Origin: Promethearchaeota archaeon
GTDB taxonomy: Archaea > Asgardarchaeota > Thorarchaeia > Thorarchaeales > Thorarchaeaceae
Length of the DNA stretch: 44,044 nucleotides
Direction of reading: 5' to 3'
NCBI GenBank assembly: GCA_048939765.1
Contig: JBHLPF010000030.1
Coordinates: forward strand, 3,402-47,445
Shown: positions 4,469 to 16,251 of the stretch, one piece after another
Numbering within the stretch: position 1 is the first letter of the stretch
Layout: every line of letters starts with the position of its first letter
The notes under the pieces: model-generated
Seen by the model: only the letters and a program-made list of their open reading frames with translations
Database searches by the model: none
Told to the model about the DNA's origin: nothing
Position numbers and translations under genes: made by a program

Positions 4469-6571
<2,103 letters not shown>

Positions 6572-8245: not shown

Positions 8246-8887
8246 TTGAATTTGGCGATAGGAACTGCTGAGTCCCATGGAGTTGTTCAAATTCTTGACC
8301 AGGCTACAGGCCTGATGAAGAAATCAAGATACCTTGAGGCCGCAAATGCCTTGGAAGATGCTTTGACAAAGTACCCCACCAGCAAGGAGATTCTGCAGCA
8401 GCTTGTTGTGTGCAATATTGAGCTCAAGAGACCTCAGAGTGCAATCTACATGCTAGACAGAATTACTAAGACTGCTCCCGATGAACTATCCGCTTGGTCA
8501 GACAAGGGCTTCTTACATCTGCTCCTAAATGAGAACAAAGAGGGGACTGAAGCTCTGACGAAAAGCATTGAATTGGACTCACGAAATGGCTATGTCTGGC
8601 AGTTGCTTGGTCTTGCACATATGGGAGAGGAAAGGTGGGCTGAGGGGCTTGACGCCTTTGAGCGTTCATTGTTGCTGGATCCAAACTCCGCTATCACCTG
8701 GTATAACCGTGCAGTGTGCTTCTTCTTTCTAGAATACTTCCATGAAGCCCTTGCTTCCGTAGAGAGGGCGTATTCGCTGGACCCCGATCTCGAAGCGTTG
8801 GCTGAAGAGTGGGTGACCATCTTGCAGGAAGCGGTAGATGAATTGGGGATTGACTACGTGGATGATTTCGAAGCTCAAGCTAGCTAG
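8246..8887 (+). CDS. Tetratricopeptide repeat (TPR) protein
   Basis: About five TPR units (AWSDKGFLHL, VWQLLGLAHM, TWYNRAVCFF, each ending in a LDP-like turn) and an acidic tail. Start codon uncertain (TTG 8246). Confidence 0.88.
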   Translation: MNLAIGTAESHGVVQILDQATGLMKKSRYLEAANALEDALTKYPTSKEILQQLVVCNIELKRPQSAIYMLDRITKTAPDELSAWSDKGFLHLLLNENKEGTEALTKSIELDSRNGYVWQLLGLAHMGEERWAEGLDAFERSLLLDPNSAITWYNRAVCFFFLEYFHEALASVERAYSLDPDLEALAEEWVTILQEAVDELGIDYVDDFEAQAS

Positions 8888-10841
8888 TGTCTTCCTTTTT
8901 GGATGCCGCTTTGGATTTCTTCTTCCTAGTTGATTTAGGCCGCTTCTTGGGCTTGCTAGGCTCAATTCCATCTAGGATCTCTTGGATGGTCTTTTGTTGT
9001 TCTTTCATCTTGAATTTTGTCGCTGATGCAAGAGCCTGCCTTAGGGCTCCCTGAAGCCGCTCCGACTCAATCTTCTGCTCCTGTGGATCCGTCATTTCCG
9101 CAATAGCATCTCTGCGTTTCGGTAGGACTCGAAGAAAGCCCTCTATAGCCGCCATGGCTTCCTCCTTGCTGACGAGTTCATCCATTGGATCAGTATCGGT
9201 GGCTTCAATGATGCGGCATATCTGCGAATACACCTGCCTGTGTTCATCCAGAGCGGCACTGAGTATTGATTCTACTTCACTTCCAGGTTCTGCGTCCTTT
9301 AGTTTCGCATTTATCTTGGCCATAGCATCATCTAGGAATGCCTTTCGCTCGTTCAGACTAGTCTTCTTTCTTTCCATCCAGCGCCATTCGTTCATGATTC
9401 CATGAGTCAAAGTCAATGCCTGATTGACCGTTTCTCTGTATTCATTGACCTTTGCCATTGCTTCGGTTAATTCAGTTTCCAGAGTATCAGCAACATCAGT
9501 TAGTTGATAACTCAGAATGTCTCCAGCCTGCGCATCGGATAAGACGCGACTCTCCTTGATAGCTCTAGCCGTTTCATCCCAAAGCTTGTCGATCACAGCA
9601 TCTTGGAGCCGAACATGGGTACCCGGCTCGACCTGTGCAGAGATCTGGTTGATTCGCTCTGTCAGGGTCCCCAGCTCTTGAATCTTTGACTTTAGGAGCG
9701 CCCGCCCGAGTCGTTCATTCAACTCCTCTGTTAATTGTTGACGCTCCTCCGGCACTTCCAGCAATGCATGCGTATTATCTATCAGATATTGGAGTGCTTT
9801 CTCGTAGGCGGCAACTGCTTCTTGATGATTCTCCTCGTCGAAGTATCCGTCTCCCTGTCTCTGAAATACTAATACGGACTCTAAGACATCATATGGTGAG
9901 GTTCTAAGAAGGCTCACTCCGTATCGCGACTCACTTGACATGTTTAGATCAAGCGGTACTTCCCCAATAGTCAAAGAAAGAACAAGGATTCCATCAGACC
10001 CGACGGCATACACATGGAGGTGGTCAGCATCGATGTATTCGATTTTATAATTCTCAATTAGGAATCGGCCCATCTCATTTCCTCTGATGAGGTCCCAGGC
10101 TGTGATGAGACCCGAGTTCATTACAGCGACCAGATAGGAGCTGTTTGACCACATAGATACAACAGGATTCGAGGTCTTATTCTGAAGAGTACGAATTAGC
10201 TGCCATTCTACCCTGTCCCATATGCCAATCTCTCCAGATTCAGATCCTATTATTACGAATTCGGGATTGCCAACAATGGCTGTGGGACGAATCTTCTTAT
10301 CGAGTCTTGCTAGCTCTGTGGGTGCCTTATTGGGTTCATGAAGCCAAACTCTGGGCTCTTCCTTCCTGCATCCAGTTAGTATGACCTTATCGTCTGACCA
10401 TAGCGTCGATATGTCAGACTTATGAAGCTGCCAGCTCGAGGTCTCGTGGGTGTCTTTCTTTATAGAAACTAGTCTTCCATCACGTGCGCCGACATAGAAA
10501 CTGTCACCTTGGAGGGTGGATGTAATGGCATGATATGTCAGCTCAAACCATCCGGTCATGCCCCAAGTCTCTTTTTTCCAGACGTATACGCGGCGTTCGC
10601 ACGTAGCATATACTCTGTCGTCATCGACATGAACTACAAGCGGTTCTGTACTGGTTTCTCCAAGCTCCGCTACTAGTTGCCAGTCTTCCTTTGACCAGAC
10701 TCTTACCTTCAGGTCTCTACAGGCAGCGTATAGAAACCTATCATCATGAACAATATGAACTGCATCCACATCTAGGACGGCAATGACTTCATGACCAAGT
10801 GGTAACGCCTCACCTGTGCTGCCTCCTGCAGAGATGGGCAT
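8880..10841 (-). CDS. WD40 beta-propeller protein with MIT/TPR-like helical bundle, coiled-coil region and Lys-rich tail
   Basis: N-terminal about 290 aa with WD-type blades (DLKVRVWS, GARDGRL, GSESGEIGIWD, SGLITAWDL). All-helical C-terminal half ending KPKKRPKSTRKKKSKAASKK. Confidence 0.82.
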   Translation of the reverse strand: MPISAGGSTGEALPLGHEVIAVLDVDAVHIVHDDRFLYAACRDLKVRVWSKEDWQLVAELGETSTEPLVVHVDDDRVYATCERRVYVWKKETWGMTGWFELTYHAITSTLQGDSFYVGARDGRLVSIKKDTHETSSWQLHKSDISTLWSDDKVILTGCRKEEPRVWLHEPNKAPTELARLDKKIRPTAIVGNPEFVIIGSESGEIGIWDRVEWQLIRTLQNKTSNPVVSMWSNSSYLVAVMNSGLITAWDLIRGNEMGRFLIENYKIEYIDADHLHVYAVGSDGILVLSLTIGEVPLDLNMSSESRYGVSLLRTSPYDVLESVLVFQRQGDGYFDEENHQEAVAAYEKALQYLIDNTHALLEVPEERQQLTEELNERLGRALLKSKIQELGTLTERINQISAQVEPGTHVRLQDAVIDKLWDETARAIKESRVLSDAQAGDILSYQLTDVADTLETELTEAMAKVNEYRETVNQALTLTHGIMNEWRWMERKKTSLNERKAFLDDAMAKINAKLKDAEPGSEVESILSAALDEHRQVYSQICRIIEATDTDPMDELVSKEEAMAAIEGFLRVLPKRRDAIAEMTDPQEQKIESERLQGALRQALASATKFKMKEQQKTIQEILDGIEPSKPKKRPKSTRKKKSKAASKKEDTS

Positions 10842-11044
10842 AATTGTATCTCGCTTTTTTCTGTTTTAGTGCTTAAGTCTTTGGTTCTTCGCGTATAAAA
10901 CTCAAATTGGGGCCGAATTGCGCATTCCAGAGTCCACGCGGGATTTGTTGAAAAGGAATTGTTAGTTTATGAAGCAATGCGCGAAACATACTTTTATAGC
11001 TCGAAAAATAGAAGATATCAATCCCCAGGCTGGAGGTAGGCATT
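10842..11044. promoter_or_regulatory. Divergent archaeal promoter region for the WD40 gene and the helical-repeat/tubulin-like operon
   Basis: TATA-like TTTTATA on the - strand (about 10894-10900), TTTTATA on the + strand (10992-10998) preceded by purine-rich GCGAAA, and SD GGAGGT at 11032-11037 before TTG 11045. Confidence 0.6.
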
Positions 11045-13732
11045 TTGGATAGTCACGCATGGAGACGCGAAATCGACAAGGTCGCTGAAATTAAAGGAAT
11101 GTTGATTCAGCTCAACAAATCTCTAGAAGACCAGACTGACAGAACCGTGCGCCATTTGTATGATACACTGGCGAAGTTCGCAAAGTTTGAGAGTGATGCA
11201 GGTTCAGCAGGTTTCATGAAAAAGAGAAAGCTGGTCGCTCAGATGGAAAAGACTGCTGGCGCTCTTGAAGAGGACTTTATGCGGGCAGTAAGGGATTTCT
11301 CAGACCTGCTGCGAAAGGAGCAACGAGAAACAGCTGCAGTCCTTCCAAAGCTTCAAGCAGAGAAACCCAATGAAGCAAAAGCAATCAGCGCGTTGACATT
11401 TCCATCTACAGGAACTGGGGATGCGAAAGACCTAGAAACCCTCTTGACATTTGCGAAGAATTTCTCAAAAATCACTCTCGGCGTTCATCAAGATCTAGCC
11501 CGAGAAGTCAAAGAGTTTCTGGACGAAAGCAAGCGGATCGTTGAGACCTATGAGAGGCATATTACCATAGACAGGGGTGAAGTCGCCTCGACTCTGTCAT
11601 ACGAAGAGGTAGCCCAACTGCCAGTCGGGGACATTATCGGACTATCTGAGAAGCTAAAGGCTGAACGCACATATCTTGACGGGCGGAAAGACGAAGTAAG
11701 CAAGATGATTGGAACTGCTTTGATGACTGAAGTAGAGTCATTGCAGGCGTCAGTTGAAACAGCATCAAGATTGGGCCTAGAGCTTCCAATGGATTTTGGA
11801 CAGCAACTCAGAATCATTGCAAGAGACTCCTCAAAGACAACGAACCTAACTTCACTCATTGCTCTGGAGAATCAGCTTCATTCCGCGAAATTGAAGATGT
11901 CGAATCTACTCCGCGACAGGATTATCAATATGAAACATGAAGTGACCTCTAAGATTGTTGAGGGAGGCATTCCTGTCACAGCTGCTATTATTCCAGAATC
12001 ACCAATTGTTGGTGTGGAGGCTGAAGATGTTGCTACTCAGCTATCCGGATATCAGAAGATGGTCGAATGGGAGTCTCAGGTCAATATCTCTCTGAAGGAC
12101 CATGTGGAAGAAGTAATCGAGGAAATTGAGAAAGCCTTGGATGCTCCAGATGATGCGGGAATCAAGGATGTCGCCAAGGTCAAAAAGTGGATTACGGACA
12201 CTAGGACGTCTTTGAAGAAGCCAACAGTTGATGGCATGGTTGCAACTTATGTGAAAGCAAATGGTATGCGTGAGGAATACCGAAAGAACATTACTGATAC
12301 CATTCGTGGATATATCACCAGATTCAATGAACTCGCTACCTCAGCAGACCGCGTGCTTGATTACGCTCAACTCAGTAAGAAAGCACCAAAGGTCGAAGAA
12401 CTTGATGGAGGTATCGTCTATCTTCTGCAGTCACTTGCTAGCCTACGTGTCGCTGTCGAAGACGGAGTTGCTACTTTCCGTGATGCATGCAAGCAAGAGA
12501 TTGAAGTGATTGTTGAGGACCTTCAGACCATCAAGCCTGCATACGCGGAAATCTTCATGCCAATCATTACCGAGCTAGACGAAGGCTCCATGCGGATTGA
12601 GAAACTCAACGATTTCGGCGAAATCAGGTCCGAGATGAGAACAATCAAGGACACAATTCTTGTTAAGGCGCAAGAGTCATTGGAGAATCTCCGCTACAGG
12701 CTTGGAGTCAAGATTCGACTCGCAGCAGCCAAGCTGATGGGAGCTGGTGTTGAGATTCCAAAGGAAGCTCAAGAGGCAATCAGCGAATTGAACAGCGTCG
12801 GTGTGGCTGCTGACACGGTCTTTAGTCTACCTGCAATCGCGAGGAAAATGATTGAACTCTATGAGCACAAGATAAGCGCAGAAGTCATAGAATCACTGAA
12901 GGAAGAGGTCGCCAAACTTCAGAAATCATTTGATCAAGCAGACGCGATTGGAGTCCCAGTCAAGGATGAGCTCAAACTGCTAAAGAAATTGCGAGAGACT
13001 CCTCCGGAAGAACTGGAATCTGCAGCTGATTCGTTTGATCAACTCATGGGCCTGACAACCTCGCCAGACGTACACAAGAAGATTAGGACACGAGCAGAAG
13101 AGGCCTACCGCCAGATTCAAGGCGCTGTTTCCATCTTTGAAGAACAAGGTATGTCTGACTTCGTTGGGCGCCTAAAAGGACTATTGGAGCAAGTTCCAGA
13201 CCAACTCAGCAAGGATTCAAAGCACATCTTCGAAGTGCTTGATGTCTGTCTCACATTGGCAAACATCCAAGATGAAATGTTGCAGGTCATAAAGGGTATT
13301 GCAACCAAGGATGGAGAAGTTCATCAAGAAGAAATCAAGAAGCAATCGGAGTATTACTCGACAATTGAAGCAGTCTACGAAAAGCATCCCAAGGACTTCA
13401 GCAAGCTCATCTTCCCGCTCGAGAAGCTCCGGAAGCTTGAAACTGACCTAGCTGAGGCCACGGTTCTTGAGGACGCCATTAAGGACTTCAACGAGCTCAA
13501 GGGACTTCGATTGGAATGGGTCGAGAAAGCAGGAAAGATGGATGACTGGCATAAATCCATGAAGGTATTCATAACCGGTTTCAGTCCATCAGCAACGCCT
13601 GACCAACGTGAGACTTTCGTCACTGACGCAGTCAAGAAGGTCAAGGAAACATACAGTAGAGAGGACATCAGTTCCTATCTGACATGGGCGATTCGTGAAA
13701 TCACAGACAAAATGGTGGAGAAAAGAGGTTAG
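11045..13732 (+). CDS. Large all-alpha coiled-coil / helical-repeat protein of unknown function
   Basis: 895-aa ORF, E/K/L/A-rich heptad character throughout, no TM and no Walker A. Recurring helix-G-hydrophobic turns (RLGLELP, EGGIPV, GAGVEIP, AIGVPV). Good SD. Confidence 0.85.
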   Translation: MDSHAWRREIDKVAEIKGMLIQLNKSLEDQTDRTVRHLYDTLAKFAKFESDAGSAGFMKKRKLVAQMEKTAGALEEDFMRAVRDFSDLLRKEQRETAAVLPKLQAEKPNEAKAISALTFPSTGTGDAKDLETLLTFAKNFSKITLGVHQDLAREVKEFLDESKRIVETYERHITIDRGEVASTLSYEEVAQLPVGDIIGLSEKLKAERTYLDGRKDEVSKMIGTALMTEVESLQASVETASRLGLELPMDFGQQLRIIARDSSKTTNLTSLIALENQLHSAKLKMSNLLRDRIINMKHEVTSKIVEGGIPVTAAIIPESPIVGVEAEDVATQLSGYQKMVEWESQVNISLKDHVEEVIEEIEKALDAPDDAGIKDVAKVKKWITDTRTSLKKPTVDGMVATYVKANGMREEYRKNITDTIRGYITRFNELATSADRVLDYAQLSKKAPKVEELDGGIVYLLQSLASLRVAVEDGVATFRDACKQEIEVIVEDLQTIKPAYAEIFMPIITELDEGSMRIEKLNDFGEIRSEMRTIKDTILVKAQESLENLRYRLGVKIRLAAAKLMGAGVEIPKEAQEAISELNSVGVAADTVFSLPAIARKMIELYEHKISAEVIESLKEEVAKLQKSFDQADAIGVPVKDELKLLKKLRETPPEELESAADSFDQLMGLTTSPDVHKKIRTRAEEAYRQIQGAVSIFEEQGMSDFVGRLKGLLEQVPDQLSKDSKHIFEVLDVCLTLANIQDEMLQVIKGIATKDGEVHQEEIKKQSEYYSTIEAVYEKHPKDFSKLIFPLEKLRKLETDLAEATVLEDAIKDFNELKGLRLEWVEKAGKMDDWHKSMKVFITGFSPSATPDQRETFVTDAVKKVKETYSREDISSYLTWAIREITDKMVEKRG

Positions 13733-13751
13733 CTGAAAGGGGACACAAACA

Positions 13752-15137
13752 ATGCTACGAGGAACATCGAGTGATGATGATCTGACAAAGGCCGCGGAGG
13801 TCTTTGCAATTGGGATTGGAGAGTGTGGGAGTAATATTGTAGGCTCCTATCTGAAAGCCAGTAAGGACAGGCAACTGCCTTCCAGAGTCAGAGGCTACTT
13901 GCTCATGAACACCGACAGAGCTGACCTCACCAAGGTGCGGCAAAAATACGGCATCCCCAAGGAGCATACAATGCTCTACGGTGCATCAGAGATAGGCGTT
14001 GGTGGAAGATTCATGGACGGATATAATGCTGTCATTGAGTCGAAGGACATCATCTTCGAGCAGCTCAAAGACCTAGGATTCGAAGGAGTCTCGGGCTTCT
14101 GCATTTTCACGAGCCTTGGCGGCGGTACAGGTTGCGGCGGGACACCCGCCATAATCGAACTGCTAAAGCAGAGATTCCAAGAAGAAGAAGGCCGCCGAAT
14201 CTTTGTGTACGTTGTAGGCATCCTACCATTCGAAGGACAGTCGAGTGAGGCGCTGAACTCGATCTGGGCTGTATCCCGTCTTCTTAGAGCACAGCTCCAA
14301 GAACGTGGAGCAGACCTTACTATTCTCCTGAGCAATAGGACTATGCTGAAGCGAATCCTCCAATCAAGAGGAGCTGATAGCGTCGACTATCTTCAACGTG
14401 AGCTAGAGATCGACATTGCCAATATCAACCAGATTGAGAGCATGGTGCCATCCACTCTGGATGAGGGCGGCGAACTAGAGGCTCGAACTGAACAGGCATT
14501 TGTTGAGTTGGTAAACCCGCTCGCACTGGATGTTGTCGAGGCAATGCTCTCGCCAGGTGTGTATGAACCTCACAAGGATGTGTTCCCGACAACAGACCTT
14601 GCGGACTATGCGAGAAAGCTTGACCCTGTCGTTGTCCCAGCGCTTTACACAGACGTTGGATTGATACCGGACGCAGGCAGCATGCCGAAGCAGCTCAAGA
14701 CAATGATGGATTTTGCAGTGAAAGAATGCTCCTATGCTGATGTAGGTGCAGAGCCAAATGCAGAGAGTGTATACTATGTCTTCTCTGGCCCAAGGCACAT
14801 CTCCAAAGCTGAATACGGAATGCACCTGAAGGAAGCACTCAATGGATTCATTGCTCCTGGAGCTGCGATCACTCCATGTTATGTTACATATACCACCAAA
14901 GATCCTTCTACCAACCTCCTTGTCCTTCTGGGTCTACCAAAGATTCCAGAGCTTGTACAAATCATCAACGAGGCAACCCAACTCGTTAATCTTCACAGCG
15001 GTTCTTCACCGCTCAAGCAGGGGTGGTTCATGCGGGCTAAGGGAACAAGTAGAAAAGAGCTTGTTGATGCCATTGCGGACTTCCGTGAGCTGTTCTCATA
15101 CTACATGACACCCGGTGATGCAGCTGAACCGATGTAG
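13752..15137 (+). CDS. Tubulin/FtsZ superfamily GTPase, divergent, with tubulin-like C-terminal helices
   Basis: T1 IGIGECGSNI, T2 NTDRADL, T3 GVGG, T4 signature SLGGGTGCG (GGGTGCG at 14118-14138), T5 LPFEG, T7 TDLAD, and C-terminal WF...G....EL.DA..D...L...Y. Confidence 0.92.
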   Translation: MLRGTSSDDDLTKAAEVFAIGIGECGSNIVGSYLKASKDRQLPSRVRGYLLMNTDRADLTKVRQKYGIPKEHTMLYGASEIGVGGRFMDGYNAVIESKDIIFEQLKDLGFEGVSGFCIFTSLGGGTGCGGTPAIIELLKQRFQEEEGRRIFVYVVGILPFEGQSSEALNSIWAVSRLLRAQLQERGADLTILLSNRTMLKRILQSRGADSVDYLQRELEIDIANINQIESMVPSTLDEGGELEARTEQAFVELVNPLALDVVEAMLSPGVYEPHKDVFPTTDLADYARKLDPVVVPALYTDVGLIPDAGSMPKQLKTMMDFAVKECSYADVGAEPNAESVYYVFSGPRHISKAEYGMHLKEALNGFIAPGAAITPCYVTYTTKDPSTNLLVLLGLPKIPELVQIINEATQLVNLHSGSSPLKQGWFMRAKGTSRKELVDAIADFRELFSYYMTPGDAAEPM

Positions 15138-15156
15138 ATGATGGGATGGTGCGGAC

Positions 15157-16251
15157 TTGACTGAAGGAACCAACATTGCAGAGGACCTCCTTGACAGAGT
15201 TCTCTTGATAGTGACCTTGAATTCAACTCTCCTTCATTTTCTTCTAAGCACCCAGGTAGATGGTACAGTTGATCCCGATAGAGTGGACTCCTTGATTCAA
15301 GGCCTCCTCAGGACTCGTCGATGGATGGAAGAAGCGACTGAACTGAAGAACATCACTCCATCCACACAGAACATCATTAGTCTAATAGTCAAAAGGCTTT
15401 CCCAGATTGAGAGCCTGTTGCCGAAGCTATCAGCAAGAGCAAAAGAGGCTGAAGCAAAAGGAGCTCCAGCTGCAGAGATCATCTCTTTCTTGGATGATGG
15501 CGCTAAAGCGTCTACGACTACAGCTATCAAGACCTCTGGAACGCCAACGGCTGCCACGAAGAAGACAGCAGCAACACCAGATTCCGGTGTCATTCCTCTT
15601 GTTGGTGAAGAAGAGGAAGTCCCTGTAGAGCCTTACCGAAAAGTCGAGGTTGAAAACGACGAATGGGGCTTGATAGGGCAGATGCAGAGGATGATTACTC
15701 AATATAGCAAGAGATGCCATGTCCTGCTGCCTACATTCTGGATTGATACTCTTCGCGAACTCCACAAGTATAGATCCGACTCGCCATTCTATGGAGATGT
15801 GATTGAACTCCCGGGTCGGGTTATTGTTAGAATCGTAAAGGGACTTCTCACTGAAGCTCCAGGAGCAAGGCTTCTTCAAGATCTATCCAAGAAGCGCCCA
15901 CAGGAAAACTATCTGAATCCCTCAGAGATGGAGCGGATTGAACGTGCTGTGGCTAGGTACTTTGCAGGCGTGGTGGATGTTCTAACTGAAGGCGAATTCA
16001 ATGTGGATGAAAAGATTGGAGAGGCTCACGCAAGCTTCGACAGCTTTGGTTGGGGAGGTCCTGAGCTAGAGAAACGAATCATCAAGAGGATAAATCAACA
16101 GGTCCAAGAAGCAATCCAAAATGCGGAATCGGCCAGTGATCCTCCAAGACAAGTGATTTATTCCGAGATTGCTAAACTATTGACAAAGTTGCAGCATGCA
16201 ATCCTTGCAGAGCCTAGATTGAGAGAGATTCTGGCTCAAATGAAGCCGTGA
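15157..16251 (+). CDS. Hypothetical helical protein, third gene of the tubulin-like operon
   Basis: 364-aa ORF 19 bp after the tubulin-like stop (TTG start). Two helical regions joined by an A/T/K/P low-complexity linker and an acidic EEEE patch. Confidence 0.75.
   Translation: MTEGTNIAEDLLDRVLLIVTLNSTLLHFLLSTQVDGTVDPDRVDSLIQGLLRTRRWMEEATELKNITPSTQNIISLIVKRLSQIESLLPKLSARAKEAEAKGAPAAEIISFLDDGAKASTTTAIKTSGTPTAATKKTAATPDSGVIPLVGEEEEVPVEPYRKVEVENDEWGLIGQMQRMITQYSKRCHVLLPTFWIDTLRELHKYRSDSPFYGDVIELPGRVIVRIVKGLLTEAPGARLLQDLSKKRPQENYLNPSEMERIERAVARYFAGVVDVLTEGEFNVDEKIGEAHASFDSFGWGGPELEKRIIKRINQQVQEAIQNAESASDPPRQVIYSEIAKLLTKLQHAILAEPRLREILAQMKP

Follow-up and report, generated by a model that had tools for sequence, protein, structure and literature searches.

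A 44,044-nucleotide stretch of a Thorarchaeales genome (Promethearchaeota archaeon, assembly GCA_048939765.1, contig JBHLPF010000030.1, positions 3,402 to 47,445; hereafter the window) carries a three-gene operon that encodes a helical protein (H895), a GTPase of the tubulin/FtsZ superfamily (TUB) and a protein of no recognised family (U364). The H895-TUB-U364 trio is a conserved module, chromosomally fixed and restricted to some lineages of Asgard archaea, and at least nine families have inherited it whole. What is new here is the conserved operon with its partner families; the clade of the GTPase had been published before, though not characterised. No known prokaryotes are closer to eukaryotes than the Asgard archaea, whose cytoskeleton is central to models of eukaryogenesis; work on it has so far dealt with lokiactin, FtsZ1/2 and the rare OdinTubulin and AtubA/B. 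The trio is far more widespread than true tubulins, being found in about one third of 400 sampled Asgard genomes, including those of Hodarchaeales, and its GTPase, so far treated only as a phylogenetic outgroup, matches FtsZ in conservation and is accompanied by two partner families without known fold. For archaeal cell biology and the study of eukaryogenesis we therefore rate the interest of the module as moderate to high.

The distribution of the operon was followed in two sets of genomes, a near-relative set of 41 genomes, each searched with TUB, H895 and U364, and a phylum-scale set of 400 Asgard genomes from about 33 sampled families, in which TUB was searched and H895 was sought by profile. 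Each of the three genes was present in 26 of the 41 relatives, in the same genomes at the family level and nearly always at the genome level (a few fragmented assemblies of the same genus are without one of them), and in the carriers the genes were adjacent every time, in the order H895, TUB, U364. At the scale of the phylum TUB was found in 125 and H895 in 129 of the 400 genomes, and the nine families concerned were identical for both: f1 (75-76/85), f2, f6, f8, f15 (4/4), f18 (20-22/22), f19 (2/2), f12 (15-16/19) and f32 (5/5), from the Thor-, Hermod-, Borr/Sif- and Heimdall/Hodarchaeota. Both genes stood at zero in all other families sampled, for example 0/135 in f9 and 0/31 in f5. In all of the families with the GTPase, 9 of the roughly 33 sampled, the trio has one and the same order, and its genes lie 19 bp or less apart, with overlaps in some lineages. 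Moreover, 25 loci were retrieved, and all-against-all BLAST of the neighbour genes at 13 of them, taken from distant families, left TUB (13/13), H895 (13/13) and U364 (11/13) as the sole gene families in common, no fourth conserved gene being found. U364 lies directly 3′ of TUB in these 11 loci, and H895 lies directly 5′ of TUB at the surveyed loci save one rearranged contig. Copy number is one per genome, and two in Hodarchaeales. Conserved as it is across lineages, the association of the three genes is more than chance. An earlier note on this stretch had proposed a dedicated system that also took in a WD40 and a TPR gene as regulators. The trio survives as such a module, through its order in nine families and its matching family-level presence and absence, H895 and U364 co-occurring with TUB; the two proposed regulators find no support, since their adjacency is confined to f1.

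Two kinds of divergent locus were also recorded. The second pair of Hodarchaeales type (L034:8420-14178, minus strand; L039:3562-9331, plus strand) consists of an H895-like protein of 1140 aa and a TUB of 441-444 aa; it is preceded by a conserved 311-aa open reading frame (ORF) of no family, and a gene for a 739-aa protein of the Gtr1/RagA-type small GTPases (PF04670, E 9e-31) converges on it. On the rearranged contig (L041:583-9734, GCA_054381455.1), TUB and a gene like U364 are followed by four genes without relation to the trio (NUDIX, MoCF_biosynth and others) and then by a 1244-aa H895 homologue.

TUB matches the Pfam family Tubulin (PF00091) over residues 16-200 with 74.4 bits against a cut-off of 33 (E 1.9e-20). 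A sequence search of the PDB placed CetZ nearest, by a match over the N-domain, among its solved relatives (4b46, E 1.2e-9; 3zid, E 6e-6), with BtubB, OdinTubulin, AtubA and FtsZ at E 1e-4 to 1e-3, and its language-model neighbours are likewise CetZ-type clusters (0.94). Weak extra matches were obtained to Tubulin_2 in Pfam (E 0.0023) and to RepX/TubZ in the PDB (E 0.0046). At E≤0.01 Pfam returned PF00091 and the weak Tubulin_2 only; CetZ_C (PF21011) was not detected, and neither was Tubulin_C (PF03953), the likeness to tubulin spanning only about 120 residues. As a cell-division FtsZ the protein fails, reaching 35 bits with the equivalog TIGR00065 against a cut-off of 295.2 and giving no FtsZ_C match in Pfam. 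In an alignment of 14 orthologues from eight or more families, the T1 (GxGECGxN) and T4 (GGGTGCG) motifs are invariant in 14/14 sequences, and so are a long C-terminal block and the T7 motif TxDxxD (TTDLADY), with the putative catalytic residues D282 and D285. In T4 an invariant Cys, C128, takes the place where Ser or Thr is usual, and T1 has an almost invariant Cys too (GECG); both lie close to the nucleotide pocket and could be sensitive to redox state. As judged from its sequence, TUB keeps the motifs of a polymerising enzyme of the tubulin superfamily.

Identity among the TUB proteins is 84-99% within a family and 44-63% between Asgard classes. On other contigs of the source assembly (3.37 Mb, 88.5% complete) there are two genes of the FtsZ type, TUB being the third gene and a much weaker PF00091 match. 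Against the orthologues of five relatives (G017, G025, G035, G102 and G336) TUB has 86, 71, 62, 56 and 60% identity, and the best FtsZ matches there have 80, 48, 63, 46 and 59% with one paralogue as query and 81, 62, 49, 49 and 51% with the other, some of these matches being cross-paralogue. The constraint on TUB is therefore no weaker than that on the division FtsZs of those genomes.

The clade itself has been published: Santana-Molina et al. (2023; PMC9871819) gave the name “Asg.Tub” to a set of four CetZ-like sequences from Asgard archaea, whose place between CetZ and tubulins was unstable and whose neighbours they described as “unknown genes,” for the most part coiled-coil. The C-terminal alignment in supplement 35 of that paper includes KXH77455.1, a Thorarchaeales protein of 461 aa that is almost the same as TUB at the C-terminus, and OLS26264.1, which is homologue P0110 in our TUB search; TUB is therefore of the same family as Asg.Tub. 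The suggestion of the earlier note that the system might be undescribed thus falls for the GTPase clade and stands for the rest, since full-text searches of the literature brought up no description of the operon, of the partner families or of any function. In that paper there is no definition of an operon and no account of partner families, distribution or function, whereas the present analysis follows the trio through nine families, defines and models the partners and sets the WD40 and TPR genes aside.

H895 has no family in Pfam, NCBIfam, PADLOC or PHROG and no predicted transmembrane segment. Its AlphaFold2 model is locally confident and extended, with long helices, and 100% helix or loop (predicted local distance difference test score, pLDDT, 86.5; predicted template modelling score 0.39). 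Foldseek found no PDB match for it at E≤0.001, and the VIA fold search returned generic 3-/5-helix bundles only. The family profile found 51 representative clusters among 1.84e9, and nothing in the PDB. Two parts are conserved, an N-terminal one (about 1-350) and a C-terminal one (about 727-895), the most conserved residues lying toward the C-terminus (W825, W835, H836, Y878 and L879). Homologues vary in length from 873 to about 1400 aa, and the longer ones repeat a central module (profile positions about 230-450), which matches 3-4 times in the 1244-aa homologue of L041; in the H895 of the window, one weak pair of segments was the only sign of internal repeats (hhalign probability 43%). On the model, H895 would be an elongated rod of helical bundles, whose length is probably varied through duplication of the central module. 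Three further proteins (P0138, P0141 and P0146; 376-747 aa) match only the first 350 or so profile positions; these are perhaps fragments, or else they represent another architecture in which the N-terminal domain stands by itself.

U364 was likewise without a family in any library searched (Pfam, NCBIfam, PADLOC, PHROG) and without a predicted transmembrane segment. Its AlphaFold2 model (pLDDT 84, with 92-98 in the C-terminal domain) consists of a three-helix bundle (2-119), a disordered linker (115-153) and a helical C-terminal domain (160-364). D168, P192, P235, G300, E305, R307 and K363 are invariant. For its fold, Foldseek gave no PDB match, the shape search of the ESM Atlas remained at a TM-score of 0.35 or less and the feature search of the Atlas gave nothing usable; in the wide VIA search the N-terminal three-helix bundle alone was matched. 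The 205 homologues are all unnamed Asgard proteins, whose locus tags adjoin those of TUB.

A contact of the GTPase with its neighbours, for which the earlier note had suggested multimer prediction, gains weak support for one partner. TUB was co-folded with residues 457-895 of H895 alongside three controls, with shallow alignments of our own, and the pair scored 0.54, the best of the three controls reaching 0.01; three runs agree in at least 88% of contacts, with a partner pLDDT of at least 82. In calibration, 58 of 80 solved complexes came up to the mark, as did 2 of 110 mismatched pairs, passes at or below 0.60 being counted as weak. Together with the strong prior that the operon gives, this score lends modest support to a binding of TUB to the C-terminal half of H895.

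Our preferred reading, to which we give a fair probability, is a dedicated CetZ-like filament system composed of TUB, the rod-like H895 as scaffold and U364 as adaptor. TUB would polymerise head-to-tail and in a GTP-dependent manner, since each active site would be completed by the T7 loop of the neighbouring subunit; the H895 rod may bind the polymer through its conserved C-terminal half, as scaffold, cross-linker or spacer; and U364 would be an adaptor or assembly factor acting through its conserved C-terminal domain. Given that separate FtsZ1/FtsZ2-type genes are located elsewhere in the genome, a third filament would most likely serve cell shape or intracellular organisation, and not division. 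A wider version is tentative and, taken whole, rather doubtful: that this is a third cytoskeleton of the tubulin superfamily, specific to Asgard archaea and standing next to the FtsZ1/2 division ring and the rare true tubulins, inherited vertically since before the split of Thor/Hermod/Sif from Heimdall/Hodarchaeal lineages, with a filament decorated or spaced by a length-variable rod, H895, and the adaptor U364, so that the whole would be a prokaryotic counterpart of a filament with its structural microtubule-associated proteins, made from families without relatives elsewhere. In any case, three soluble proteins make a directly testable system for GTP-dependent filaments and their decoration.

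Several points weigh against the filament system. We infer both the polymerisation of TUB and its binding to H895, and the C-terminal domain and polymer interfaces of TUB are likewise read from sequence. H895 and U364 resemble no known filament-binding protein, and the co-fold passes in the weak band, on shallow alignments. In Hodarchaeales the second, paralogous H895-TUB pair is without U364, which is therefore not obligatory; on one contig H895 lies 2.2 kb off, behind unrelated genes, and strict adjacency is therefore not universal. Finally, the module is absent from most of the sampled Asgard families and is thus not essential.

Among systems with solved structures CetZ is the closest by sequence (4b46, 3zid, 4b45), and it is also archaeal and soluble, coexists with FtsZ1/FtsZ2 and is known for its part in cell shape. 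TUB differs from it in having no detected CetZ_C, in its greater length (461 aa) with a conserved C-terminal region of its own, and in coming with H895, whereas no operon partners are conserved for CetZ genes (Santana-Molina et al., 2023; PMC9871819). FtsZ with EzrA, a bacterial regulator with spectrin-like triple-helix repeats and an N-terminal membrane anchor, is also among the nearest systems, EzrA being considered as a possible counterpart of H895. BtubA/B with BtubC, and the Asgard AtubA/B, recall the trio as tubulin-superfamily genes in a tight operon with a helical-repeat accessory protein, AtubA/B by their Asgard lineage as well. BtubC is a TPR protein. Here, in contrast, there is a single GTPase and no A/B pair, the similarity to tubulin is at E 1e-3 to 1e-4, TUB has no Tubulin_C, and the partners are unrelated to BtubC.

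Of the other explanations, the one that survives best leaves the three proteins together and takes away the filament. TUB would then join H895 and U364 in a soluble hetero-oligomer, as a GTPase switch or in the manner of a chaperone, its tubulin fold being put to a Misato-like or otherwise degenerate use. Its distance from every characterised polymer-forming family (the best PDB match being only E 1e-9), the want of a recognisable CetZ_C, FtsZ_C or Tubulin_C domain of Pfam, the Cys in the signature GGGTGCG and the scaffold-like partners all speak for this. Nevertheless we hold it unlikely, for D282 and D285 of T7, which in the superfamily act only in trans at the longitudinal polymer contact, are invariant in all lineages, and the conservation of TUB over its full length is as strong as that of the FtsZs, a constraint that would be expected for a polymer with several interfaces.

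The five-gene system of the earlier note, in which the WD40 and TPR genes would regulate or anchor the filament and be co-regulated through the 203-bp spacer, is quite improbable. In its favour, eukaryotic microtubule regulators often have WD40, TPR and basic tails, the WD40 gene divergently adjoins H895 in nine genera of f1, and the spacer has two opposed TATA-like boxes. However, throughout f1 the whole block of amino-acid kinase (AAK), RidA, TPR, WD40, the trio, CoA ligase and FMN dehydrogenase is collinear, the metabolic genes AAK, RidA, CoA ligase and FMN dehydrogenase being equally conserved in position, and the adjacency of the WD40 and TPR genes therefore carries no specific signal. 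A WD40 orthologue near the operon was found only in f1, and neither in a sister family of the same order (G025), in which the FMN dehydrogenase still adjoins U364, nor in other lineages. Moreover, two Thorarchaeota genomes of the same genus have about 2.5 kb with a TATA-binding-protein (TBP) gene and small ORFs between WD40 and H895, absent in the window, so that the shared promoter is not conserved even within a genus. As for the WD40 protein, its residues from about 25 to 290 match many weak beta-propeller models in Pfam and designed WD40 propellers in the PDB (phmmer, E 3e-17), and the segment from about 315 to 384 that had been called MIT-like scores only as one hairpin of TPR_2 (residues 326-352, E 0.0012), the Pfam and PDB sequence searches giving neither an MIT family nor an MIT structure. 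We read the WD40 and TPR genes as ordinary neighbours of the trio, and the three-gene definition removes the misleading eukaryote-like reading of the WD40/“MIT” neighbour.

H895 could also be thought a distant homologue of the gamma-tubulin complex proteins (GCP/GRIP) that caps or nucleates TUB filaments: it is all-helical with about 900 aa, lies beside a tubulin-like gene, has a weakly supported contact with TUB in its C-terminal half, and one of 19 family members matches PF04130 (GCP_C_terminal, E 0.0032). That match stands amid equally good, spurious coiled-coil matches, with none in the eight most divergent members; the H895 profile finds no GCP in the PDB or among the 1.84e9 representatives, and no GCP chain appears in the Foldseek and VIA lists for the H895 model (whose single domains were not searched apart), a model made of long-helix bundles. 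We consider such a homology very unlikely.

The faintest chance is left to a chromosomally integrated cassette for DNA segregation or maintenance of a mobile element, similar to TubZ/PhuZ. A divergent tubulin-like GTPase with two small operon partners does recall the three-gene cassettes TubZRC and TubZ-TubR-TubY of plasmid partition, and both Tubulin_2 and RepX/TubZ are among the weak matches of TUB. Unlike those, the trio is fixed between the same housekeeping genes through the whole of f1, mostly at one copy per genome, in a region of level GC content and without any mobile-element signal, and neither H895 nor U364 matched a helix-turn-helix or other DNA-binding family (centromere repeats were not looked for). 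A defence or phage origin was rejected, the locus giving no PADLOC match and a single marginal PHROG match to which no function is assigned.

The gene map of the earlier note, with its five ORFs, two 19-bp gaps and 203-bp divergent spacer, agrees exactly with the ORF list (Table 1), and its calls of the tubulin/FtsZ-family GTPase, the helical protein, the WD40 and TPR genes and a basic tail on the WD40 protein were all borne out. The gaps run from 13732 to 13752 between H895 and TUB and from 15137 to 15157 between TUB and U364. Upstream of H895, reading of the sequence gives a TATA-like TTTATA at 10993-10998 and a Shine-Dalgarno-like GGAGGT at 11032-11037, 7 nt ahead of the start codon at 11045. 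Another TATA-like box, TATAAA at 10895-10900 of the plus strand, is oriented toward the WD40 gene. The flanks in the window are housekeeping genes, LigA, AAK and RidA on one side and CoA ligase and FMN dehydrogenase on the other, and therefore, as the note had also stated, there is neither an ftsZ-type nor a tubR/plasmid context.

Table 1. Features of the locus in window coordinates; the last row gives the insert gene in the coordinates of two related loci.
Feature	Position	Strand	Description
TPR gene	8246-8887	+	213 aa; convergent with WD40 gene; Pfam TPR_2, E 4e-19
WD40 gene	8880-10841	-	653 aa; N-terminal WD40 propeller, TPR-like hairpin, helical region, Lys-rich tail
Upstream region of operon (divergent spacer)	10842-11044	+	203 bp, between WD40 gene and H895
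H895	11045-13732	+	895 aa; all-helical, soluble, predicted elongated with long-helix bundles; operon gene 1; TTG start
TUB	13752-15137	+	461 aa; tubulin/FtsZ-superfamily GTPase, Asg.Tub clade; operon gene 2
U364	15157-16251	+	364 aa; predicted three-helix bundle, linker and helical domain; operon gene 3
TBP gene of insert	L028:7553-8170, L029:4600-5085	-	PF00352, E 1e-52 to 2e-62

Among the flanking genes, LigA (window 4469-6565, minus strand) is a full-length NAD-dependent DNA ligase of bacterial type in a Thorarchaeota genome, with adenylation, OB, Zn-finger, HhH and BRCT domains, and its position is kept in relatives (L020, L031).

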